Assembly (NCBI GenBank): GCA_030615175.1
Contig: JAUWZX010000001.1
Span: 126,566 to 190,565, forward strand
Reading direction: 5' to 3'
Origin: Candidatus Parvarchaeota archaeon
GTDB lineage: Archaea; Nanobdellota; Nanobdellia; WJKC01
Length of the DNA stretch: 64,000 nt
Below the pieces are notes generated by a model. It ran no database searches. It saw nothing but the letters and a program-made list of their open reading frames with translations, and was not told the DNA's origin. The translations under genes were made by a program, and so were the position numbers. Positions within the stretch are counted from its first letter, which is position 1. Every line of letters starts with the position of its first letter. This document shows positions 6,916-60,774 of this stretch, piece after piece.

Positions 6916-7296
6916 ATGGATAATTTTACACTGATAGATTTAGATGATTTATTGGAAAATTATGATTTAGGACATAAGGCAAGGTTTATGAATGTTTGTT
7001 ATGATTCTGATGGGCTTAAAGGAGGAACTGCAATTATTAGATTATACATGAATTTTTATGGATATCCAGGCGTTCGTTATGCTAAAAATATTGTTAGCAA
7101 ATTTAATAAAAAAAAGAATAATAATTTTGAATTAAAATTTAATTCTAGTTTTCCTATCAATCTTGAAAGATGGAGTGAACCAGCTAATCCTAAACCCTGC
7201 TTTTATATTGAGAAAGTGCCACTGGATAAGGATGCTTGTGAGGAAGCAATATTAATAATGCTTAAGGCGCAGAGTAAATTGTTTAAGAAAATTTAA
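6916..7296 (+). CDS. Hypothetical protein (126 aa)
   Basis: Clean ORF filling the gap between convergent operons; no motif recognised. Confidence 0.6.
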   Translation: MDNFTLIDLDDLLENYDLGHKARFMNVCYDSDGLKGGTAIIRLYMNFYGYPGVRYAKNIVSKFNKKKNNNFELKFNSSFPINLERWSEPANPKPCFYIEKVPLDKDACEEAILIMLKAQSKLFKKI

Positions 7297-7844
7297 TCAT
7301 AATCCTTGTCTTTTGAAATTCTTGATGGCGTTGCAGTTGTCTGCCCTTGATACTTGCCTGAGTAAGGATTCTTGCAGGGATTTGATAATTTATGAAGTGT
7401 TAGTTTACAAATCTTCATTCTTGGATAAATCTTTACAGGCATTTTGCCGATATTGGCAACTTCAAGTGTTAACTTGCCTTTGAATCCTGCGTCAACCATT
7501 GCTGCTGTCTGAATGATTATTCCTAATCTGCCGAGGCTGCTTCTGCCGTCAAGATTTGCTGCTAAGTCGTTAGGCATTTCAATCCATTCATGAGTGGTTG
7601 CAAGAATGAATTCATTAGGGTGCAGTATAAAGAATTCACCGTCATTAATCACTTTTAATTCAGTGTAGTCTTCACTGTCATTTAACGGGTCTATGTGTGT
7701 TTTAGCAATGTGCTTGAAAATCCTGAATTCATTGCCAAGCCTTAAGTCAATGCTGTTAGGTCCTATTAATTTCCTGTCAAAAGGTTTTAAGACTAAACTC
7801 CTTTCATCAATTCGTTTTTCAATGTCATCGTCACATAAAATCAT
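7293..7844 (-). CDS. dcd: dCTP deaminase (possibly the dUMP-forming bifunctional type)
   Basis: PNSIDLRLG, DGRSSLGRLG, QTAAMVDAGFKGKLTLEV (catalytic Glu present), YSGKYQGQ. Confidence 0.92.
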   Translation of the reverse strand: MILCDDDIEKRIDERSLVLKPFDRKLIGPNSIDLRLGNEFRIFKHIAKTHIDPLNDSEDYTELKVINDGEFFILHPNEFILATTHEWIEMPNDLAANLDGRSSLGRLGIIIQTAAMVDAGFKGKLTLEVANIGKMPVKIYPRMKICKLTLHKLSNPCKNPYSGKYQGQTTATPSRISKDKDYD

Positions 7845-8409
7845 TCAAAACACCTTTAATGTCTTCATGAACTTCCTTAATGCTTTTATCACCGTTTATT
7901 ATTATAAACCTCTTGCTTTTAAGCAGTAAATATTCATCCCTGACTTTTTTTAGCACTTCTTTCATTTCGTATTTATCTTTGCTTTTATTCCTGTTATTAA
8001 CCCTGTTAATTGCTGTTTTAACAGGCGCGTCCAGGTAAATCGTTAAGTTAGGTTTTGGAAAGCATTTATTCAGGTTAATAACCCATTCTTTGTTTAAGCC
8101 CATTGCTGTCTGGTAAGCAATGCTTGAATGAATGTACCTGTCGCATATAACTGTTAGTCCTTTCATTAAACTTGGCATTATCACTTTCTCAATGTGCAAT
8201 GCCCTGTCAGCAGCGAATAATATTGCATCAACCCATTGCTCTGTGTCCGGATTCTTCAAGTGCTCCTGTAGCACTTGGCTTGTCTCTAAGTCCTTTGTCG
8301 GTTCCTCAGTTACCTTAACCCTGATTCCTTTAGTATTTAACCATTTCTTCAGTAACTCTACCTGTGTTGTCTTGCCTGAACCGTCAATTCCTTCAAAAGT
8401 TATGAACAT
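7831..8409 (-). CDS. tmk: Thymidylate kinase
   Basis: FITFEGIDGSGKTTQ, LFAADR, VICDRYIHSSIAYQ. Confidence 0.96.
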   Translation of the reverse strand: MFITFEGIDGSGKTTQVELLKKWLNTKGIRVKVTEEPTKDLETSQVLQEHLKNPDTEQWVDAILFAADRALHIEKVIMPSLMKGLTVICDRYIHSSIAYQTAMGLNKEWVINLNKCFPKPNLTIYLDAPVKTAINRVNNRNKSKDKYEMKEVLKKVRDEYLLLKSKRFIIINGDKSIKEVHEDIKGVLNDFM

Positions 8410-8411
8410 AC

Positions 8412-9950
8412 TTATTCTATCATCCCTTCTTCTCTTAATAATTCTTCTACAGTGTCAAGGATATTATCATATATGTGCAGGCTTACTGCATAGTGCGTGT
8501 AACTTCCTACCTGAACTCCTAATTCATCAGCCATTAATTTCTGCAGTTTAGTGATTGCGTAAACATTGCTTGGGAAGCCGCCGTAAAGGTCTTGTGATTT
8601 GAACATGACATGGAAGTCTAGTCTGCCTTTATTAATTCTTGGCTGAACAGTTACTAAGCAGGGAGCGTGAGGCATGCGCTTTAAACTCAAGTCCTTGTAA
8701 GGCATCCAAGTGCACATCACGACTCTTCTGAGGGTTGGGTCTTTTTTTAATAACTTAACTGCTTCCCTGACTTGGTCAAACTTTATTAAGCCCTTATCCC
8801 CTGTTTTTAATAATTCTTCGTTGCTTGCAATGTTAGGAACTTCTGAGCGCGCAACGCTTTCAGGGTAATGCCTTAAGCGCGAGTAATAAGTGTAAACGAA
8901 TTCATTTTCTTTTTCAATACCTTTTCCTTCAATGAATTCCTTAGCATACTTATTTCTTGCCTCGTACTTAGGGGCTTTGGGGTTCATGACAGGCTCTGCC
9001 AGCGCATCCTTAACGTGAATGATTATTGGCAGGTCGAACGTGCGCGCATTGTACTTGCCTACTTCATATTTCTCTCCGTAAAGGTATGCCTGCGTTAATG
9101 CCTTAATCCAAGCATCACTCAAATTCTTTGCTTCAATAAAAGTTGTTTTTAAGTAATCTTTTTCCTTAACATCTTCAGTGTCTTCTTCATAATCTTTTGA
9201 ATCCTTAAGGCATAATTCTGCTTTTTTTAATTCACTGCCTAAGTAAAGTGCGTGATGCAGGTCAGATATCAGTCCTAATTTAATTATTTTCTTGTTAATC
9301 TCTAATGCTGTTTTCCCAATAATTACTGTATGTTCTTTTCCTTTCATGAAATGCTTTGCCACTATGTAGTTATTCTTTGTTTCAATTTTAAAGTAGCCAA
9401 GTTCATCTTCTTTCCATTCCACTTCTGTTCCTTGAGCATTAATCGCGCTTTTAAACGCGTTGCCTGATTTTTTTTCAATGTCAAGAACATAGTCTTCAAT
9501 GCTTTTTGTTTCAGGAAGGTCTTTTATTATTTTTATTATTTCTTCAGGGTTTTCTGAGTTAATCACCTTTATGTTCTGTATTTGCTTTCTGAACCTTTTT
9601 ATTAATTCATCATTAACTTTTAATTTAGGGTCATCGCCTGTTGCATTAGTAATTCTTTTATTTTCATCCACGCCCTTATTTACTAAATTCTTTAAAGCAT
9701 TGCCCACATTATGCCCTTTGCTTTCCTTGCCGCAAATAATTATATTCCTAACCCTGCCGTTGCTTATTAAGTTCTTAATCATCCTGTCAATGCCTACATT
9801 TTCAGTAACGCATGAGCCTATAACCGCTATTCTTTTGCAATCATTGAATTCAGCGTTATCAGGCAGTGAGAATGAAGCTCTAGTGACTACTGCAGTGTCC
9901 CCTTTAAGGTTTAATATTTTGTAAGAGCCTTTTATTGGAGGCCAGGTCAT
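8412..9950 (-). CDS. thyA: Thymidylate synthase (archaeal ThyA type) fused to N-terminal MtrA-like corrinoid-binding and DUF4346 domains
   Basis: aa 1-150 MtrA-like (WPP, TENVGIDRMIKNLISNGRVRNIIICGKESKGH); aa ~178-257 DUF4346-like (DELGYF..HALYLGSELKKAE); aa ~270-512 TS (YTY..RL, DQV, RR, APCL, FKSQD, FPSN, SLHIY). Confidence 0.85.
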   Translation of the reverse strand: MTWPPIKGSYKILNLKGDTAVVTRASFSLPDNAEFNDCKRIAVIGSCVTENVGIDRMIKNLISNGRVRNIIICGKESKGHNVGNALKNLVNKGVDENKRITNATGDDPKLKVNDELIKRFRKQIQNIKVINSENPEEIIKIIKDLPETKSIEDYVLDIEKKSGNAFKSAINAQGTEVEWKEDELGYFKIETKNNYIVAKHFMKGKEHTVIIGKTALEINKKIIKLGLISDLHHALYLGSELKKAELCLKDSKDYEEDTEDVKEKDYLKTTFIEAKNLSDAWIKALTQAYLYGEKYEVGKYNARTFDLPIIIHVKDALAEPVMNPKAPKYEARNKYAKEFIEGKGIEKENEFVYTYYSRLRHYPESVARSEVPNIASNEELLKTGDKGLIKFDQVREAVKLLKKDPTLRRVVMCTWMPYKDLSLKRMPHAPCLVTVQPRINKGRLDFHVMFKSQDLYGGFPSNVYAITKLQKLMADELGVQVGSYTHYAVSLHIYDNILDTVEELLREEGMIE

Positions 9951-10462
9951 ACTTGCGCTTCCTTCTCAGTTGAGGCGACTCTTCCGCCCTGCCACTGCCC
10001 CCTGTACATATTAGTTTCCCCTTTCACTTCAAGGAATTGAATGTGAGCCACTCTTGCCCCTAATTCAAACTTGAACGGCTTGTTTCCTGAATTCTTTAAT
10101 CCGAATACAAGCCCTCCTTTGTAGCCCGGGCTTGTTGCTGTTGCTATTAATATTACTCCGCACCTGTGAAGCGTGCTCCTTGGGAAAGTATACATTACTA
10201 AGTTTTTAGGGACATTAACTGATTCCATTGTCTTAATAGTTACGTACTCTTCTGGCATTAATGTGTAATCCTTGTCCTTGCCATGCTCTGCTACTAATTT
10301 AACATTGCTCGTGTCCCTTTCATTTACTCCCAGGAATCCTTCGCTTTCCAGTTTGTAAACTTTGCCTACCCTAATGTCAAAGCCTGCTCCTTCAGGATTT
10401 GCTTTTTCGCGTTCGCATAAGTTTTTAACAAAACCATTAATCTTGTCAACGCCCAGTATCAT
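9947..10462 (-). CDS. dUTPase/dCTP-deaminase superfamily protein (trimeric beta-clip)
   Basis: GFDIRVG, FPRSTLHRCG, PGYKGGL, GARVAHIQF, YRGQWQG; start placed at MILGVDK (10462). Confidence 0.8.
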   Translation of the reverse strand: MILGVDKINGFVKNLCEREKANPEGAGFDIRVGKVYKLESEGFLGVNERDTSNVKLVAEHGKDKDYTLMPEEYVTIKTMESVNVPKNLVMYTFPRSTLHRCGVILIATATSPGYKGGLVFGLKNSGNKPFKFELGARVAHIQFLEVKGETNMYRGQWQGGRVASTEKEAQV

Positions 10463-10547
10463 TGAATTTCTTGAGTTCTCTTCCACTTTAAAATTTTTCT
10501 CTTCCTCTTTTAAAATTTTATATATTCTGAGGTTCGTTAAAATAATC

Positions 10548-11075
10548 ATGAGATTATTTTTAGGAGCGCCTCTGCCAGTGGATATTAGAAAATTACTGGT
10601 TAGTCTTTATGAGTTATTTAATTCAGTTCCCTGCAAGTTAAAATTTGTTCCTTTTGAGAACCTTCACATTACCCTGCGCTTCCTTGGCGAGCAGTCCAGT
10701 GCCAAGGAAATTATTAATTCGCTTTCAGGAATTGATTTTAATTCATTTAATGCTTCTATTGAGAATTTCTCAGTCTTTCCAGGTCCTAAGTTCATCAGGA
10801 TTATTCATTCCCCGGTTACTCTTGGCAGCGGGGGATTTATTGAGTTGTATAAAAAAATTACTTCTTCATTAAATCTTAAGCCAGAGCGCTTCACTCCTCA
10901 CGCCACCATTGCGCGCGTTAAGGGTGAGTGCAGTCCAATTAATATTTTGTCAATAACTCATAACATCACTTTTAAGGAGGAATTCACTGCATCATCATTT
11001 AATCTTTACAAGAGCACTCTTACTCCTAAAGGACCAGTTTATGAAGTGCTTAAGGAGTTTAGACTTAAAACATAA
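10548..11075 (+). CDS. thpR: RNA 2',3'-cyclic phosphodiesterase (2H family, 2'-5' RNA ligase)
   Basis: MRLFLG start, two HxT motifs (HITL, HATI), LYKSTLTPKGPVY. Confidence 0.92.
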   Translation: MRLFLGAPLPVDIRKLLVSLYELFNSVPCKLKFVPFENLHITLRFLGEQSSAKEIINSLSGIDFNSFNASIENFSVFPGPKFIRIIHSPVTLGSGGFIELYKKITSSLNLKPERFTPHATIARVKGECSPINILSITHNITFKEEFTASSFNLYKSTLTPKGPVYEVLKEFRLKT

Positions 11076-41784: not shown

Positions 41785-42720
41785 TTGAAGTTTTCAATAA
41801 TTATTCCATGCAAAGAAGATTCAGATTACTTGCGCGAGTGTATAAAGAATATTAAGAAAATGAATTTCAAGAACCACGAAGTGATTGTTATCCCTAATAA
41901 GAAAATTTATCTTAAAGGCGTTAAAGTTATCCCATTATCTGCTGGGCCTGCTGAGAAGCGTGACTTAGGTGCTGAAAAAGCAAGGGGTGAATACTTAGCT
42001 TTTATAGATGATGACGCTTATCCTCATAAATACTGGCTAAAGAACGCATTAAAATACTTGAAAGGAAAAGTTGTTGCACTAGGAGGTCCTCAAATAACTC
42101 CTGAAAGTGATTCATTACTGCAGAAAGCATCTGGTCAGGTTCTCTCTTCACGACTTGTTGGAGGCTTACGAGCTCGTTATGAGAGTTTAAGCAAGTCTTT
42201 TTTCATTGATGACTGGCCTACTGTTAATTTCATTATCAAACGTAGTGTTTTCTTAAAACTCGGCGGGTTTGACACTCATTATTATCCTGGAGAAGATACT
42301 AAATTATGTCTTGACTTAATTAATTCAGGTTATAGAATTAGTTATGCTCCTGACTGCATTGTTTATCATCACAGGCGCTTTTTATTCAAGCCGCATATTA
42401 AACAGATTTCTAATTATGGCTTACATAGAGGATTTTTTGTTAAGAAATTCCCTAAAACAAGTTTTAAAATTACTTACTTTGCTCCTTCATTATTAGTTAT
42501 TGGTTTGTTTTTAGGGTTAATACTATCATTTTTTTCAAGTACTTTCTTAGCAATTTACTTACTAGCGTTAGCATCTTATTTTTTAATTTGTTTTCTTGCA
42601 TCTTTGAACACAAAGAATTTAAAATTAACCTTTTTAACAACTTTAGGAATAATTACAACACATTTATTCTACGGCATTAACTTTATTAGAGGATTATTAG
42701 TTGGAGGTTTATTAAGATGA
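41785..42720 (+). CDS. GT2 glycosyltransferase with C-terminal TM helices
   Basis: FSIIIP, AFIDDD, GGFD...GED, VYHHRR; TTG start with AGGTGA RBS. Confidence 0.87.
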   Translation: MKFSIIIPCKEDSDYLRECIKNIKKMNFKNHEVIVIPNKKIYLKGVKVIPLSAGPAEKRDLGAEKARGEYLAFIDDDAYPHKYWLKNALKYLKGKVVALGGPQITPESDSLLQKASGQVLSSRLVGGLRARYESLSKSFFIDDWPTVNFIIKRSVFLKLGGFDTHYYPGEDTKLCLDLINSGYRISYAPDCIVYHHRRFLFKPHIKQISNYGLHRGFFVKKFPKTSFKITYFAPSLLVIGLFLGLILSFFSSTFLAIYLLALASYFLICFLASLNTKNLKLTFLTTLGIITTHLFYGINFIRGLLVGGLLR

Positions 42721-44168
42721 AAGTGTTAATCACAGCACCTCCATTAAAGGGTCCAGGAATGCCTCAGTTAGGTCAGAATAGGCAATTCCAGTGGTTTGAT
42801 AATTGCTCTGCCATTTACCCAGTTGTTCCTGCTTACGCAGCAACAATGCTTAAACAGGTAGGTTACAATGTTCACTGGCTTGATGCAATTGTTGAAGGCA
42901 AGTCTTATGCAGAGTTTAAGTCTTATTTTAAGAAGTTAAGCCCCGACTTAACTACTTTTGAAACAAAAACTCCTGTTATTGAACAGCACTGGAAAATAAT
43001 TGATAACTTAAAAAAGATTAATCCAAAATGTAAGGTAGTCTTGTTCGGCGACCACGTTACCGCAATCCCTAAAGAATCATTTAAGCACTCAAAAGTTGAT
43101 TACGTCTTAACTGGTGGTGATTACGATTTTTTACTAGTTAATCTTTGTAATCATTTGTCAAGAAAGGAAAAACTTGAACCAGGGATTTATTACAGGAAAG
43201 GAAGAAGGATTTTATCAACCGGCAAGTTCAAACTTAATCACAACTTAAATTCACTACCATTTATTAACAGGGAGTTAACTAAGTGGGAGAATTATGCTTA
43301 TGACAATGGAAACTACAGGAGTCTGCCTGGAACTTATACAATGGCTGGCCGTGACTGCTGGTGGCATAAATGTACTTTTTGTTCATGGCCAACTCTTTAC
43401 CCGCGCTTTAGGGTAAGGAAGCCAGAACTTCTTGTTGAGGAGATTAAGCACTTGGTTAATAATTACGGAGTCCGCGAAGTTATGGATGACACTGGAACCT
43501 TTCCTGTTGGTCTCTGGCTTAAAAAATTCTGCAAATTAATGATTAAATCAGGATTGAATAGGAAAGTGCGTATTAATTGTAATATGCGCTTTGGCAAATT
43601 AAAACAAGAGGATTATAAGTTAATGCGCAAGGCAGGTTTCCGCTTTTTGTTATTTGGTCTTGAGAGTGCTAATCAGAAGACACTTAATAGATTGAATAAG
43701 GGTATTAAAGTTAATGACATAATTAGTGGCTGTGAGTGGGCTAAGAAAGCAGGATTGAACCCTCACATTACTTGTATGATTGGTTATCCATGGGAGTCGT
43801 ATAAAGATGCGGAGAATACTATTTCACTTGCTAAGAAATTATTTAATAATGGTTGGGTTGACACTCTTCAAGCAACTATTGTAATACCCTATCCGGGCGC
43901 TCCTTTATATAAAGAGTGCAAAAAGAAGGATTTATTGGTGTACAATGGCTATTCTCAGTGGAAATACTATGACATGCGCAGAAATGTTATGAAATCCGAA
44001 TTAAGCGAGGAACAGATTAAAGCATTTACTCGCGAGTTATACAAAGCATTCTTTTCACTAAGGTATGTGATTAGAAAGTTTTTAGAGATTAGAGGAATTG
44101 ATGATATTAAATTCATTATGCGGGGAGTTAAGCAAGTATTCAAGCACTTAACTGATTTTGGAGGTTAA
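42717..44168 (+). CDS. B12-binding radical SAM protein (HpnJ-like motif)
   Basis: N-terminal cobalamin-binding domain (FGDHVT), GRDCWWHKCTFCSWP (CX4CX2C), FGLES, MIGYPWE, PYPG. Confidence 0.88.
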   Translation: MKVLITAPPLKGPGMPQLGQNRQFQWFDNCSAIYPVVPAYAATMLKQVGYNVHWLDAIVEGKSYAEFKSYFKKLSPDLTTFETKTPVIEQHWKIIDNLKKINPKCKVVLFGDHVTAIPKESFKHSKVDYVLTGGDYDFLLVNLCNHLSRKEKLEPGIYYRKGRRILSTGKFKLNHNLNSLPFINRELTKWENYAYDNGNYRSLPGTYTMAGRDCWWHKCTFCSWPTLYPRFRVRKPELLVEEIKHLVNNYGVREVMDDTGTFPVGLWLKKFCKLMIKSGLNRKVRINCNMRFGKLKQEDYKLMRKAGFRFLLFGLESANQKTLNRLNKGIKVNDIISGCEWAKKAGLNPHITCMIGYPWESYKDAENTISLAKKLFNNGWVDTLQATIVIPYPGAPLYKECKKKDLLVYNGYSQWKYYDMRRNVMKSELSEEQIKAFTRELYKAFFSLRYVIRKFLEIRGIDDIKFIMRGVKQVFKHLTDFGG

Positions 44169-49260: not shown

Positions 49261-50847
49261 TTATTTCTTTTTTCTGCCTTCATATAAAATTTGAGGAGTG
49301 AATCTTCCTTGTTTTAGCATTGCTATTTTAACTTTAACCCCGCTTTTAATTAATTTTAGAACATATTTTAAGTCATCTAATGAACGTATCTTTTCAACAA
49401 CCTTTAATGGATTCATAAGGCTTTTAATTCTTTTACTCCAGAAGAGGTTTGTATATTCTGTTTGGATGTTCTGTAATTGTTTTTTTGTAAATCTTTCCGT
49501 GTCACATCCATTCTGTGATAATGCTGCTCCTAAATTAGATAAGTCACTTTCACTTATTTTACCTAATTTCATGAACTTGTCAAAATTAACTAAGCCCTCT
49601 TTTTTGAAATCTTCATACATTTTTGTTCCTGGAAAAGGCATGGCTAGATAAAATAATGCAAAATCAGTTTCTGATTCAATTGCGAACTTAAGTGTTTTAT
49701 TCATTTCTTTTTTTGTTTCATATGGAAATCCTATGATGAATGTGCATACAGTCCATAGTCCTGCTTTATTGCAATGTTTTATAACTCTTTTTGCCTGACT
49801 TAAGTCATGCAACTTGTTGATGTACTTTCTGGTAGTTCTTGAACCGGATTCTATACCAAAAGTTATGCGATAACAGCCCGCCTTTTTCATTTTTTTAATG
49901 GTTTCATTATCAAGTGACCAGTGGCTTGTTCCATTAGGTGTTGTCCATTTAATTTTTATTTTTCTTTTTAAAAGTTCATTGCAGATTTTATTTGTTCTTT
50001 TTTTGCTTAACGTCATGTTGTCGTCAATGAATGAAACTTCATTAATTTTATAGTCATTAATTAGTTGTTCAATTTCGTCAACAACGTATTTTGCTTTATG
50101 TGTTCTCCACGTATGACCCCAGACAGAATGAATAGAACAGAAAACGCAGTTTCCAGGACAGCCTCTTGAAGTTATCACTTGAGTTGATGGAGGGGCCATT
50201 ATGTACCTGTTGGATGTGTATTTAAAATATTTTTTCATAGGAAGTAAGTCCCTTGCTGGGAAAGGAATTGTATCCAAGTCTTTAATTAATGGTCTTGGCT
50301 TGTTAATTATAATCTTTTTATTTTTTTTATACCCAATACTGAGGATTTCTTTAGGATTAAATTTTCCGCAACTTAGTGATTTTACTATCTCATTAAATGT
50401 TACTTCACCTTCTCCATAAACAACCAAGTCCAGATTTTTATCCTTTAATAAGAATCTTGGGAATATTGAGGCATGAGCCCCACCCATAACTGTTAAAATA
50501 TTTTTATCTACTTCTTTTGCTAGTCTTGCAACACTGTGAGCGTCTCTGGCATACGCGGTGTACATTGAATTAATCCCAATAATATTTGGATTATACTTTT
50601 TAATTTCTTGTTTAATTTGCTTTTCATTTAAGCCGTATTTAATCCAGTTTTTACCCTTTTGAACATTTTCGATTCCCTCTGTTAATGCATCAATTATTTT
50701 AACTTCTGAAGTTTTTTCTTTTCTTAAGTATGATGCTATGTATGCCAGTCCTAATGGGGGATTAGTTGCTGGTTGTGATAAATCTTCTCCATATATAGTC
50801 ATTGATGGAAACATTAATAATGTTTTAACATCTTTCATAAATTTCAC
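49261..50847 (-). CDS. B12-binding radical SAM protein
   Basis: PPLGLAYIAS, GGAHAS, GEGE, TSRGCPGNCVFC, FGIESG, IIGFPYET, PFPGT. Confidence 0.92.
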   Translation of the reverse strand: MKFMKDVKTLLMFPSMTIYGEDLSQPATNPPLGLAYIASYLRKEKTSEVKIIDALTEGIENVQKGKNWIKYGLNEKQIKQEIKKYNPNIIGINSMYTAYARDAHSVARLAKEVDKNILTVMGGAHASIFPRFLLKDKNLDLVVYGEGEVTFNEIVKSLSCGKFNPKEILSIGYKKNKKIIINKPRPLIKDLDTIPFPARDLLPMKKYFKYTSNRYIMAPPSTQVITSRGCPGNCVFCSIHSVWGHTWRTHKAKYVVDEIEQLINDYKINEVSFIDDNMTLSKKRTNKICNELLKRKIKIKWTTPNGTSHWSLDNETIKKMKKAGCYRITFGIESGSRTTRKYINKLHDLSQAKRVIKHCNKAGLWTVCTFIIGFPYETKKEMNKTLKFAIESETDFALFYLAMPFPGTKMYEDFKKEGLVNFDKFMKLGKISESDLSNLGAALSQNGCDTERFTKKQLQNIQTEYTNLFWSKRIKSLMNPLKVVEKIRSLDDLKYVLKLIKSGVKVKIAMLKQGRFTPQILYEGRKKK

Positions 50848-56353: not shown

Positions 56354-57268
56354 ATGATTTCAGTTGTTCTGCCTGTGTATAATGAAGAGAAGAATGTTAG
56401 AATATTTGTTAAGGATATATTAAGGGTTTTTTCAAAGAATAAAATTAAGGGTGAAATAATAATTGTTGATGACGGCTCTACTGATAATTCATTAAAGGTG
56501 ATTAAAAAATTGGCTGATCATAAACTTGTGAGGTTTTACCAAAACAAGGTTAATATGGGCAAGTCATTCGCGTTAAAGAAGGGTTTCATCCATGCAAAAG
56601 GGGACATAGTCTTTATGATTGATGTGGACTTGCAGCACAGTGCTGAGGATATACCTAAATTCATTAAGAAAATAAGGGAGGGTTATGATGTTGTTAATGG
56701 GTGGAGAAGATATAGGAAGGATGGAAATTCTAAAAGAGTTCCTTCAAGAATATATAATTCTTTAACAAAGAGATTATTTAATTTGAATGTTCATGATTTT
56801 AATTGCGGTTTCAAAGCGTTCAAGCGTGAAGTTATTGAGCAATTATCAATGATGTCTGGTGAGCATAGATTTATTATCCCTCTTGCCAGGAAAGTAGGTT
56901 TTAATGTTGGCGAGCTTGAAGTTAAACACTTTCCAAGAAAGTATGGAAGATCAAAATATAATTATAAAAGGATTTTTGGGGGCATGCTTGATTTAATAAC
57001 TTTAAGAGTGAGGTTTATATTGGGTAATAAGCCTATGAAGATTTTTGCAGGAGTTGGTGGTTTACTATTATTTTTGGGCTTTTTATTGGGGTTTCACATA
57101 TTTTATATTAAATATTTACTGGGTCAGGACTTGGGAGCTGGGAGACCAATAGTTATTCTTGATGTATTATTATTGATATCTGGCGTACAATTATTCTTTT
57201 TTGGTTTCGTATTTGACAGCATTAATGAATTAAAACAGAGTATTAATGATAGGGTGTTTAAGAAGTGA
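56354..57268 (+). CDS. GT2 ArnC-like polyprenol-phosphate glycosyltransferase
   Basis: VLPVYNEE, DDGSTD, IDVDLQH, GYDVVNGWR, DFNCGFKAF, HRFI, H.PRKYG.SKY, two C-terminal TMs. Confidence 0.9.
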   Translation: MISVVLPVYNEEKNVRIFVKDILRVFSKNKIKGEIIIVDDGSTDNSLKVIKKLADHKLVRFYQNKVNMGKSFALKKGFIHAKGDIVFMIDVDLQHSAEDIPKFIKKIREGYDVVNGWRRYRKDGNSKRVPSRIYNSLTKRLFNLNVHDFNCGFKAFKREVIEQLSMMSGEHRFIIPLARKVGFNVGELEVKHFPRKYGRSKYNYKRIFGGMLDLITLRVRFILGNKPMKIFAGVGGLLLFLGFLLGFHIFYIKYLLGQDLGAGRPIVILDVLLLISGVQLFFFGFVFDSINELKQSINDRVFKK

Positions 57269-58716
57269 GAGTTCTTACTTTAGTCCCTCCAAGTAGTCAG
57301 ACCAAAAATGTAGTCAGGGATTTAGTTTACGGGTGCTGGTGCAAGGGCAAGAGAATAGCCAAAACAAAGTTTCCTCCAATTTACTTGTTGTTGATTTCAA
57401 CAATATTAAAAAATGAAGGTCACAAAGTCACTTTGATTGATGCGGCTTCAGAGGGAATAAGTATTGAAGAGCTTAAGAAGATTGTTTTGAAAAAAAGAAT
57501 TGAGGCTGTTATAATGTTAACTGCAACAATGACTTTTAATGAGGACGTAAGTATTCTTTCAGAACTTAAAAAAAGCAATCCAGCGATGTTTACAATACTT
57601 TATGGTCAACATGTTACTTCATTTCCTAAACAAAGTCTTAAAAATGAGGCTGTTGATTTTATAGTTAAAAAAGAACCTGATTATATTATTAGAAATTTGA
57701 TTAATTCTCTTGATAATAATAGGTCTTTTAAGAATATTAAAGGTATTGGATTTAAACAAAATAGGAAAATTATAGTCAATAGAGATGCACCTTTTATTAA
57801 AAATCTTGACGAACTCCCTTTTCCTGACAGAACAATATGTCCTGATGTTGAATATTTTAATCCATTAGCAAAAAGAGATCCTTATACAACCGTAATTACT
57901 TCAAGAGGTTGTTCAGGTAAGTGCACTTTCTGCACTTCTCCATATTTTTACGGCGGTGTTTACAGGTTTAGAAGCGCTGAGAATGTTGTTGAAGAACTTA
58001 AATTAATTGCTTCACAAGGGTATAAGGAGGTTTTGTTCAGGGACGAAACTTTCACAGTTCATAGAAAAAGGACTAAGAAGATTTGTAATTTAATAATAAA
58101 AAATAAACTTGATTTAACTTGGGTGTGTAATGCGCGGGTGGGAACAATTGACAAGGAAACAATGAAGTTAATGAAGAAGGCGGGTTGTCATAAATTAAAA
58201 TTTGGTGTTGAGTCAGGAAGCCAGAAGATACTTGATAATATTCAGAAAGGAATTAGATTAGAATGGATTATGAAAAACTTTATGGATGCTTATAAAGTTG
58301 GTTTGGACACGCATGCTCATTTAATACTTGGTGCTCCTGGAGAGACTAAAGAAACAATTAATCAAACTATTGATTTTATTAAGAAATTAAAGGCAGATAC
58401 AGTTACTGTTGGAATATTAACTCCTTACCCTGGTTCAAAATTATTTGATGAAATAGCGCGTATGGACAAGAGCATTCTAAAGAACTGCACTAGTCATGAT
58501 TTAAGCAAGTTGCATACTAAAAGTTTTTACAATGAATTGATATGTGATTTGAGTAAGGAATTCCTTGAGAAGTCAGTAAAAAGGGTTTACAAGAGTTTTT
58601 ATTTAAGATTATGGTATATCTTATGGAAGCTTAAGAAAATAAATTCATTTGAAGAATTTAAAACAGTTTTACGTGCTGGCATTACAACGATATTGTTTAG
58701 TGTGAGTGGTGATTAA
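57265..58716 (+). CDS. B12-binding radical SAM protein
   Basis: YGCWC N-terminal motif, GQHVT, TSRGCSGKCTFC, RDETFT, FGVESG, ILGAPGET, PYPGS. Confidence 0.9.
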   Translation: MRVLTLVPPSSQTKNVVRDLVYGCWCKGKRIAKTKFPPIYLLLISTILKNEGHKVTLIDAASEGISIEELKKIVLKKRIEAVIMLTATMTFNEDVSILSELKKSNPAMFTILYGQHVTSFPKQSLKNEAVDFIVKKEPDYIIRNLINSLDNNRSFKNIKGIGFKQNRKIIVNRDAPFIKNLDELPFPDRTICPDVEYFNPLAKRDPYTTVITSRGCSGKCTFCTSPYFYGGVYRFRSAENVVEELKLIASQGYKEVLFRDETFTVHRKRTKKICNLIIKNKLDLTWVCNARVGTIDKETMKLMKKAGCHKLKFGVESGSQKILDNIQKGIRLEWIMKNFMDAYKVGLDTHAHLILGAPGETKETINQTIDFIKKLKADTVTVGILTPYPGSKLFDEIARMDKSILKNCTSHDLSKLHTKSFYNELICDLSKEFLEKSVKRVYKSFYLRLWYILWKLKKINSFEEFKTVLRAGITTILFSVSGD

Positions 58717-59368
58717 TATTAAATCCTTAAATAAGTTATACTATAAAGAAAGGTATTTTAAACAAAGTAATTGTGTTAAAGAATATGTCAAAAAAAGAAG
58801 GAAATTTCTTAATAAGGGAAACATCGTTCTTGATTTTTGTTGCGGTCAAGGGTTATTCTTATCGGAGCTTAAAAAGAAGTCAAATTTTGTTGTAGGTATT
58901 GACATTTCTATTGACCAGATTAAGCGTATTAAAAAAGAAAGAAATCTTTTCCTTATTGTTGCTGATGGGGAGCAATTACCTTTTAAAAAAGAATCTTTTG
59001 ATTTTATTCTCTGTAATGCAGCATTGCATCACTTCGAAAACGTTAATTTAGGTATTTCAGAGGTATCAAGAGTTTGTAATCCAAAAGGAAGAATCACGTT
59101 AATTGAGCCTAATCGCGTAAATATATTAATATTCTTATTAGGGTTGAAAAAAAGAGTCGAAAGGAATAGTTTAAAACTTAATAAAAAAAAGATTGTTTCA
59201 CAACTTAATGATTTTAAAGTGAGTTCTTCAAGGATTTGGAGTCTTGTTTACCCTTCTATGAATTTTAATTCAGGGTTCATTAAATTATTATTAACTGCTG
59301 AATTAATTTTTGAGAAATTATTTAATTATTTTGGAACACACTTAGTTGTTAAAGGTGTTAAAAAATGA
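58706..59368 (+). CDS. Class I SAM-dependent methyltransferase
   Basis: VLDFCCGQG, GIDIS, LPFKKESFD, ALHH, IEPN. Confidence 0.88.
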   Translation: MVINIKSLNKLYYKERYFKQSNCVKEYVKKRRKFLNKGNIVLDFCCGQGLFLSELKKKSNFVVGIDISIDQIKRIKKERNLFLIVADGEQLPFKKESFDFILCNAALHHFENVNLGISEVSRVCNPKGRITLIEPNRVNILIFLLGLKKRVERNSLKLNKKKIVSQLNDFKVSSSRIWSLVYPSMNFNSGFIKLLLTAELIFEKLFNYFGTHLVVKGVKK

Positions 59369-60774
59369 AGGTTTTGCTTGTTAATCCTCCTTGGAGCGAA
59401 GTTTATGGCAGGTATAAGCCTGCGGCCAGAGTAGGGGTTATGAATCCCCCTTTAGGGTTGTGTTACTTATCAAGTGTTGCTAAGGACGCTGGCTTTAATG
59501 TTGACATCCTTGATGCTGAGGTAGAAGTAATGAATGAAGAACAAGTAGCAAATTACGCAATTAAGAAAAAATATGATGCTGTTGGCATTACTGCCACAAC
59601 CCCTCTTTTTCATAAGGCAAACAAGATTGCAGAATTAATTAAAAAGAAGAATAAGAGTATTGTAACAATAATTGGTGGACCTCACGTAACCTTAATGCCT
59701 CACCTGATTAAGAATTCATATTTTGATTATGGTATTGTTGGTGAAGGAGAAATAACTTTTCCAGAATTATTGAAATCAATTAAAAAAAGGGTGAAGAACC
59801 CAAGAACCAGGGGTATTGTTTATAGGGAAAATAAAAAAATTATCAAGACAAAACCACGTGAATTGATTAAAAACCTTGACAGCCTTCCTTTCCCTGACAG
59901 GGAGTCCTTGAATTTGGATAAGTATAAATGGAGTGTTCCTAAAAAAGGAATTATGAGATTTACAACAATTTTAGGCAGTAGGGGTTGCCCTTTTAAGTGT
60001 ATTTTTTGCTCAACTAATGCAATTTTTGGTAGGAAATTCAGGCTTAGGTCTGCGGAAAATATATTTGATGAGCTAAAGCAGTTGGTTGATGAATTTAATA
60101 TTAGGCATTTTCTCATGATTGATGATACACTAACTGTTTCAAGAAAGCGCATGATGGAATTAAGCAGGTTAATAGTAAGGAATAAGTTAGATATTACTTG
60201 GGAGGGATGGACCAGGGCAAATTTAGTGGATAAAGTTTTATTAAGGACTATGAAAAGGGCAGGCTTTAACAGTATATCATTTGGTATTGAATCAGGAGAC
60301 CCTAAAATATTGAAAGTTATTAAGAAAGGGGTTGATTTAAAATCTGTTGATAAGGCTTATAAGATTGCTAAGAGTTTAGGCATTGAAACTCGCTGTTCAG
60401 TAATGATTGGTCATCCTTTTGAGACAAGAGAGTCTGCTATGCGCACTTTGAATTTTATTAAGAATTTAAAATATTGTGACCAAGCTAGAATTAATATTTC
60501 AACTCCTTATCCTGGAACCAAGTTATATGACATGGCTTTAAAAGGAGAGGGAGGCATTAAACTTTATACTAAGGAGTTTTCAAAGTACAGGCGTTATGGT
60601 AATGCTGTTATTAGTGTTAATGATTTATCGAGGGAGGACTTAATTAAAATGCAGAAAAAGGGTATTAGGATGTTTTATCTTTCATCTCCAAGGAGAATAT
60701 GGTATAATCTTAGGAGGGCTGGCTTAAAGGCAGCTATTAATAATTCGATTGCTTTTGCTAAGAGTTTTTTTTAA
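59365..60774 (+). CDS. B12-binding radical SAM protein
   Basis: PPLGLCYLSS, GGPHVT, GEGE, SRGCPFKCIFC, FGIESG, MIGHPFET, PYPGT. Confidence 0.92.
   Translation: MKVLLVNPPWSEVYGRYKPAARVGVMNPPLGLCYLSSVAKDAGFNVDILDAEVEVMNEEQVANYAIKKKYDAVGITATTPLFHKANKIAELIKKKNKSIVTIIGGPHVTLMPHLIKNSYFDYGIVGEGEITFPELLKSIKKRVKNPRTRGIVYRENKKIIKTKPRELIKNLDSLPFPDRESLNLDKYKWSVPKKGIMRFTTILGSRGCPFKCIFCSTNAIFGRKFRLRSAENIFDELKQLVDEFNIRHFLMIDDTLTVSRKRMMELSRLIVRNKLDITWEGWTRANLVDKVLLRTMKRAGFNSISFGIESGDPKILKVIKKGVDLKSVDKAYKIAKSLGIETRCSVMIGHPFETRESAMRTLNFIKNLKYCDQARINISTPYPGTKLYDMALKGEGGIKLYTKEFSKYRRYGNAVISVNDLSREDLIKMQKKGIRMFYLSSPRRIWYNLRRAGLKAAINNSIAFAKSFF

Follow-up and report, generated by a model that had tools for sequence, protein, structure and literature searches.

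The available text of PMC9012536 names two routes to dTMP, ThyA working with DHFR, and ThyX. The available text of PMC4915002 describes MtrA as a methyl carrier whose cobalamin-binding site differs from that of MetH, and gives the cobalamin contacts as His84, Glu54, Asn55, Thr53, Gly57, Asn64, Tyr18 and Val61. In the window, the whole 64,000-nucleotide stretch analysed here, we found a gene in which an MtrA-like domain, DUF4346 and a short archaeal-type ThyA domain follow one another in a single frame (P0001, Table 1).

We compared P0001 with the described systems closest to it. The best NCBIfam match for its C-terminal half (residues 271-497) is the methanogen-type short thymidylate synthase, TIGR03283, with which it shares the ThyA fold and the Cys, Asn, Asp and HxY residues. 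However, P0001 falls below the curated cut-off of that family, is fused to MtrA and DUF4346, carries a Lys for an Arg, and comes from an organism that is not a methanogen and whose genome lacks DHFR. Compared with canonical ThyA (EC 2.1.1.45), it lacks the motifs that close the folate site, and again its genome lacks DHFR. The N-terminal domain shares with MtrA and its cytoplasmic homologues (PF04208; 5LAA, 5L8X) the fold and the equivalents of His84, Glu54, Thr53, Asn55, Gly57, Asn64 and Tyr18. In contrast to MtrA, this domain is soluble, has no membrane anchor and is fused to a nucleotide enzyme in a genome without MtrH; P0001 scores below the TIGR01111 cut-off (103.3 vs 249.15), and most of its relatives lack the His. 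The MtrA-DUF4346 proteins of NF002128 (PRK00964.1-6) have the same two domains in the same order, but P0001, with 146 bits over residues 2-259, is far below their cut-off of 568. Those proteins have no ThyA domain and make up a clade of their own, and many of them begin with a Cys-rich extension. Like ThyX and the bifunctional DHFR-TS, the fusion would dispense with a separate DHFR, and in the sampled genomes it never occurs together with ThyX (0 of 37); however, neither P0001 nor its genome contains a Thy1 or DHFR domain.

The available text of two papers on non-methanogen MtrA (PMC11291895, PMC9635834) contains no occurrence of 'thymid'. We found no description of the fusion in the literature, although supplements and subscription journals could hold a mention. 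Databases already hold the architecture under the automatic names 'thymidylate synthase' or 'DUF4346 domain-containing protein'. The fusion is real, conserved and uncharacterised, and on present evidence it is a ThyA-type enzyme. What is new here is the rare His-keeping domain order, its in-place exchange with a His-less form, and the three-way exclusion count described below.

The fusion gene, its operon and its genome

Table 1. Features of the fusion locus (positions in the window)
Feature	Position	Strand	Basis
dCTP deaminase (dcd)	7293..7844	-	TIGR02274, 212.7 bits, above cut-off
dTMP kinase (tmk)	7831..8409	-	TIGR00041, 173 bits, above cut-off
MtrA-like/DUF4346/short archaeal-type ThyA gene (P0001)	8412..9950	-	512 aa, no internal stop
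Thymidylate-synthase-fold domain, residues 271-507	8430..9140	-	TIGR03283, 134.4 bits, below cut-off of 174.55
Cys431 codon, catalytic nucleophile position	8658..8660	-	Alignment
DUF4346 (PterinBD), residues 181-257	9180..9410	-	Pfam, 68.9 bits; H233-x-x-YLGxEL motif
MtrA-like domain, residues 2-147	9510..9947	-	Pfam, 115.6 bits; phmmer to 5LAA, E 4e-22
His80 codon	9711..9713	-	Aligns with cobalt ligand His84 of MtrA
dUTPase/dCTP-deaminase-like gene	9947..10549 (longest ORF)	-	Profile match, below NCBIfam cut-offs

The original prediction described three domains in one polypeptide, and this was borne out by Pfam. MtrA (residues 2-147; 115.6 bits), PterinBD-DUF4346 (181-257; 68.9) and Thymidylat_synt (355-507; 76.3) all exceed their cut-offs of 25, 29.6 and 24.3 bits. 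The frame is not an artefact, since 7 of the 12 protein-search matches are full-length homologues (45-95% identity); annotated phages and plasmids gave no full-length match. The predicted coupled operon of dut-like gene, thyA, tmk and dcd also held, gene names included. The stop codon of the dut-like gene overlaps the fusion ATG (ATGA), a 2-nt gap separates the fusion from tmk, and tmk overlaps dcd. Judged by where its profile match begins, the dut-like gene probably starts near 10462. No RNA families were found in the window, and sigma-70-type promoter and terminator counts there were at chance level.

The P0001 genome is 1.0 Mb in size and 87% complete. The lack of DHFR noted for the window extends to the whole of this 87%-complete genome, in which profile searches with PF00186 and PF01872 (RibD_C) gave no matches. 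Of the mtr genes, MtrH likewise gave no match genome-wide and MtrA only one. Profile searches of the genome also gave no matches for ThyX, SHMT, Pterin_bind, thymidine kinase, Fhs or FolD, so that SHMT, Pterin_bind, Fhs and FolD searches reveal no encoded source of methylene-pterin. The genome does encode an archaeal SAM synthetase and two small ferredoxins, with a Fer4_15 ferredoxin present as a free protein. It also has five B12-binding domains, of which the four within the window are radical-SAM fusions. These four genes, at 42717-44168 (+), 49261-50847 (-), 57265-58716 (+) and 59365-60774 (+), sit inside a long glycosyltransferase cluster, and their substrates are perhaps surface glycans. 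In several related genomes the number of B12-binding matches reaches 9-10.

The C-terminal domain belongs to the ThyA superfamily, as its PF00303 score shows, and its top Foldseek matches are thymidylate synthases. The dUMP-activating residues C431, S452 and D454 (Ser-x-Asp), N462, H492 and Y494 (His-x-Tyr), the paired Arg R408-R409 and the YG-motif Tyr Y355 are kept. The active site had been described as intact-looking apart from the Arg of RSxD, and we found the same: Cys431, Asn462 and His492/Tyr494 are in place and Lys451 replaces the Arg. In an alignment with seven canonical ThyA proteins of the same class, P0001 has no counterpart of their DRTG loop, TTKK, IWDEW and C-terminal tail, which we take to be the elements that close the folate site. 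Asp454 is presumably the pterin-binding Asp of ThyA.

His80 was proposed to be the equivalent of the cobalt-ligating His of MtrA, and it does align with the His of cobalamin-bound 5LAA and of 8Q3V. By alignment, the MtrA contacts correspond to H80, E50, N51, T49, G53, N60, Y10 and M57 of P0001 (in the order given above). A model of residues 1-262, built on 95 sequences (pLDDT 94.4), superposes on 5LAA with an rmsd of 1.4 Å over 144 columns, which confirmed the MtrA fold. The VIA comparison of this model with MtrA gave Z 23.6 and rmsd 1.6 over 148 aligned residues. The full-length model is of moderate quality (pLDDT 69.5, pTM 0.47) and uninformative on domain packing. Since the contacts of PMC4915002 are kept and the model matches 5LAA, P0001 probably binds a cobamide.

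For DUF4346, a structure search with MtrA and DUF4346 together gave no clear match: those listed were to MtrA, except for one that covered residues 183-252 (Z 5.8, rmsd 2.3, 65 aligned). An Atlas search gave none. Outside the fusion, DUF4346 is also joined to pterin-binding barrels (P0010-P0012; TIGR00284 match). Of 20 fetched loci with free DUF4346, 5 encode it as a fusion to a single-cluster Fer4_15 ferredoxin; beyond those 20 we found two further such fusions and one locus with an adjacent ferredoxin gene. For free DUF4346, 8 of 18 places have a B12-binding domain within 5.5 kb, whereas the fused gene has one at 0 of 19. On a Nostoc plasmid, free DUF4346 is downstream of a cobalamin riboswitch, DUF1636 and metE. 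A pterin-binding role for DUF4346 would agree just as well with its metE and pterin-barrel settings. The idea that DUF4346 by itself replaces DHFR is not supported, since it occurs in 1 of 11 canonical-ThyA genomes without DHFR and in 10 of 27 with it. The ferredoxin-DUF4346 fusions or adjacent pairs (L033, L035, L036, L041, L044, L163, L164 and L165) often lie in glycosylation clusters beside B12 radical-SAM genes, and they are a candidate module for the reductive activation of cobalamin.

Distribution among genomes and the wider family

To place the fusion against other synthases we profiled 251 genomes of the same class, which are related to one another, so that the counts below are not independent. 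Canonical ThyA was defined as a PF00303 match of at least 190 bits (38 genomes). The fused form was defined as an open frame of at least 448 aa with DUF4346 present (36 genomes), and G040 was added to give 37. Short or partial PF00303 matches were left out (23 genomes, 16 of them with ThyX). The 37 fusion genomes fall in 15 families, and 11 of them belong to one genus. DHFR was found above cut-off in 1 of the 37 as compared with 27 of the 38 canonical-ThyA genomes. That one, G064, is also the only fusion genome with canonical ThyA, held as a thyA-folA pair. ThyX occurs in 114 of the 251 genomes, but in 0/37 with the fusion and 0/38 with canonical ThyA.

This profile against folA and thyX supports the earlier proposal of a route distinct from both ThyA/DHFR and ThyX. 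From these counts P0001 is very probably the sole dTMP synthase of its cell, with no need for DHFR. About 15% of the sampled genomes (37 of 251) apparently rely on a form that is incompatible with DHFR and ThyX alike. Non-detection is common in these assemblies, since in 63 of the 251 genomes not one of the three synthases is seen. The absence of SHMT was rejected as evidence of new chemistry: SHMT is found in just 23/251 genomes and 7/38 canonical-ThyA genomes, the other 31 of which also lack it.

Two further observations concern other synthases of the class. Eight genomes of family f30 (G071, G093, G123, G141, G173, G183, G188 and G193; loci L160-L162) carry a canonical-looking ThyA and gave no match to DHFR, ThyX, SHMT or DUF4346. 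In many genomes ThyX takes the form of a pair of Thy1 domains within a single frame of 450-620 aa.

We surveyed architectures in 160 stored proteins and 30 loci. With M for MtrA, D for DUF4346 and T for ThyA, the main ones are M-D (92), M-T-D (65) and M-D-T (11), the order of P0001. Residues were counted after two duplicate rows (L001, L003) had been removed. The RSxD Arg is Lys in all 10 M-D-T proteins, and Cys431 is kept in 64/64 M-T-D. The DUF4346 residue His233 is kept in 9/10 M-D-T, 63/64 M-T-D and 91/92 M-D. His80 is kept in 10/10 M-D-T and 75/92 M-D, but in 1/64 M-T-D. Most M-T-D proteins have the His loop deleted and nearly all have also lost Glu50, and a pattern search of 235 further M-T-D proteins found no His motif. 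The tail pocket is retained in M-T-D (T/S49 57/64, G53 62/64, N60 56/64). Thus the significance given to His80 stands for its equivalence to the cobalt ligand and for the M-D-T order, but does not extend to the family as a whole.

In a midpoint-rooted FastTree tree of the M and D columns (a subsample of 85 proteins, methanogen MtrA not included), the His-keeping synthase-linked forms group together (support 0.815), and the loop-deleted proteins form a clade of their own (1.0). We infer from methanogen MtrA that the His is ancestral. In two sister genera (L055, L056) a His-less M-T-D gene follows the same topA-ligT genes and has tmk and dcd downstream. Since the same locus is occupied in sister genera, the His-less M-T-D and His-keeping M-D-T forms very likely have one and the same function. 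By record name, M-T-D proteins come from Aenigmarchaeota, Woesearchaeota, Micrarchaeia and Thermoproteota. They also occur in cyanobacteria, cultured ones with the His-less form included (AFZ22461.1, AFZ60923.1), and on viral contigs (123 matches, from which 80 loci were retained). DHFR was found in 0/5 viral records that bear the fusion.

Models for dTMP synthesis by the fusion

The B12 links of the fusion are contextual. The available text of PMC4350170 gives DUF4430 as the domain at the C terminus of transcobalamin-like proteins, and that of PMC9963975 places it next to rtpR in a lactobacillus. A split operon on a bacterial contig (L155) places DUF4430 and DUF6580, putative B12-uptake genes, beside dcd, MtrA-DUF4346 (His kept), TS and tmk. 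G051, which has the His-keeping M-T-D protein, is the only fusion genome with both DUF4430 and DUF6580, which are adjacent there; they are found in 1/37 fusion genomes and not in that of P0001. DUF6580 is presumably a B12-uptake component. At L064 the fusion adjoins a corrinoid adenosyltransferase and ribonucleotide reductase. The uptake markers were rejected as a general link, being rare everywhere (DUF4430 4/80, DUF6580 2/80) among 80 genomes made up of the 37 with the fusion, 22 of the 37 canonical-only and 21 of the 114 with ThyX. PF02310 B12-binding proteins are present in 20 of the 37 fusion genomes and in 0/11 of one fusion-bearing genus. Genome-wide co-occurrence with them showed no clear link (19/36 other fusion genomes vs 13/37 canonical-only).

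We tentatively favour a model, to which we give slightly less than an even chance, in which methylene-pterin is the one-carbon donor and a cobamide module of MtrA and DUF4346 supplies the reductant. We prefer it on account of the conserved pterin-binding Asp, the absence of any methyl-loader match and the pairing of DUF4346 with ferredoxin. In this model dUMP would be supplied by Dcd and the dUTPase-like protein, the ThyA domain would activate it at Cys431, and Tmk would take dTMP on. The one-carbon unit would come from methylene-tetrahydropterin, probably imported from the host. The reducing equivalents, elsewhere provided by DHFR or the ThyX flavin, would be delivered by the fused module through a cobamide held by the MtrA domain. 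DUF4346 could act as a docking or adaptor domain that couples this cobamide to ferredoxin. The module would then reduce the exocyclic-methylene intermediate or re-reduce dihydropterin. His80 would ligate cobalt in the M-D-T subfamily and be dispensable across the wider family.

The module is tied to dTMP genes by a Dcd-MtrA-DUF4346 fusion (P0031), by the L155 operon and by the tmk, dcd or dut genes that adjoin the fusion in many loci. Several results count against a cobamide reductant. Nearly all M-T-D proteins are without His80, Glu50 and the His loop, and neither the PF02310 distribution nor the single genome with DUF4430 and DUF6580 speaks for it. No methylene-pterin source is encoded, DUF4346 does not track the lack of DHFR among canonical-ThyA genomes, and a quarter of the sample (the 63 genomes above) is without any synthase. 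In addition, methanogen-type short synthases lack the same folate-capping motifs yet presumably use ordinary chemistry. We put even odds on the participation of a cobamide in turnover throughout the family. MetH, a methyl relay, and QueG, in which cobalamin is the reductant, are mechanistic precedents for the two cobamide models considered here.

The second of these is a MetH-like relay, in which the MtrA cobamide would hand CH3 to the Cys-activated C5 of dUMP and no dihydropterin would be formed. DUF4346 would then bind the methyl donor, methyl-tetrahydropterin or, in some members, SAM. MtrA is itself a methyl carrier in the available text of PMC4915002, and P0001 keeps all of its contacts. 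The missing folate-capping motifs and C-terminal tail would leave an open site, and DUF4346 is fused to pterin-binding barrels and adjoins metE. Furthermore, archaeal SAM synthetase is present in 3/3 His-keeping fusion genomes (G000, G048, G051) vs 3/34 other fusion genomes. However, a SAM synthetase of either type is found in just 9/37 fusion genomes, which does not support SAM as a general methyl donor. MtrH is found in 0/37 fusion genomes (that of P0001 and 36 others), a result that speaks more for a redox role than for a methyl relay, and the P0001 genome has no pterin-binding barrel. Asp454 is kept in 63/64 M-T-D and 9/10 M-D-T, whereas the His is lost in 63/64 M-T-D. We regard the relay as unlikely.

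Ordinary ThyA chemistry that proceeds without a cobamide is, in our estimate, rather improbable as well, and we place it after the relay. The MtrA domain would be a relic or would bind another flat cofactor in the nucleotide-tail pocket, and dihydropterin would be recycled by a B12-free MtrA and DUF4346, by an unrecognised reductase or by the host. Consistent with this, the majority form has lost the cobalt ligand, kept the tail pocket and occupies the same locus (L055, L056). Moreover, 17 of the 37 fusion genomes have no PF02310 protein, and 11 of the 38 canonical-ThyA genomes likewise have no DHFR. Against it, the MtrA domain is about as conserved as the catalytic domain in the close homologues P0003-P0006 (55-63% vs 60-67%), His-keeping forms accompany DUF4430 and DUF6580 genes in L155 and G051, and DUF4346 has separate B12 contexts.

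It is very unlikely that the ThyA-fold domain is a dUMP hydroxymethylase or another base-modifying enzyme that requires no reductant: hydroxymethylases need no DHFR, MilA is among the Foldseek matches (rank 33) and dCMP hydroxymethyltransferase among weak phage matches (H23), but no other dTMP source is seen, since the 36 fusion genomes besides G064 lack canonical ThyA and ThyX and the P0001 genome, where the gene is coupled to a canonical tmk, has no thymidine kinase.

In its broadest form, a cobamide reading would make the fusion a third way of synthesising thymidylate, in which the reduction or methylation step of a ThyA-fold enzyme runs on a cobamide. Its carriers would range over small-genome archaea, other bacteria, bloom-forming cyanobacteria and their viruses. 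In most of the proteins the DUF4346 His, or a His-off cobamide, would replace the MtrA ligand, and DUF4346 would serve quite generally as an adaptor from ferredoxin to cobalamin. We judge this reading as a whole to be evenly balanced between right and wrong. If a cobamide joins the chemistry, this would be a new B12 reaction in core DNA metabolism and categorically new chemistry. It would also give a function to non-methanogen MtrA homologues and to DUF4346, and help explain thyA genomes without folA.

Variants of the family

Among P0124, P0157, P0078 and P0093 are longer forms with duplicated T-D modules or a second N-terminal MtrA-like region, and, by eye, a fusion to a dCMP-deaminase-like domain. 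Two M-D-T homologues, P0007 and P0008 (L154 5968-7356), have lost the catalytic Cys; P0008 has a large internal deletion, retains the MtrA His and lies in an interrupted operon. MtrA-DUF4346 proteins at L065 3734-4906 and L067 3872-4903 have a middle region that resembles an eroded synthase domain, and their genomes (G080, G118) hold canonical thyA.

At L066 2071-4339 and L068 2062-4163 a short stand-alone ThyA-like gene is coupled to an upstream gene for a protein of 506-537 aa, which has no Pfam match and is 26% identical between the two loci. A conserved hydrophobic protein of 317-345 aa (family f3; L058 3023-3973, L061 2374-3408, L070 3082-4116), also with no Pfam match, sits between tmk and the fusion gene. 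Finally, Planococcus plasmids encode a DUF4346 protein with an MtrA-like region (L072 4458-5837), whose gene comes after those for ArsR and a heavy-metal P-type ATPase, which hints at a metal-related use of the MtrA-like/DUF4346 module.
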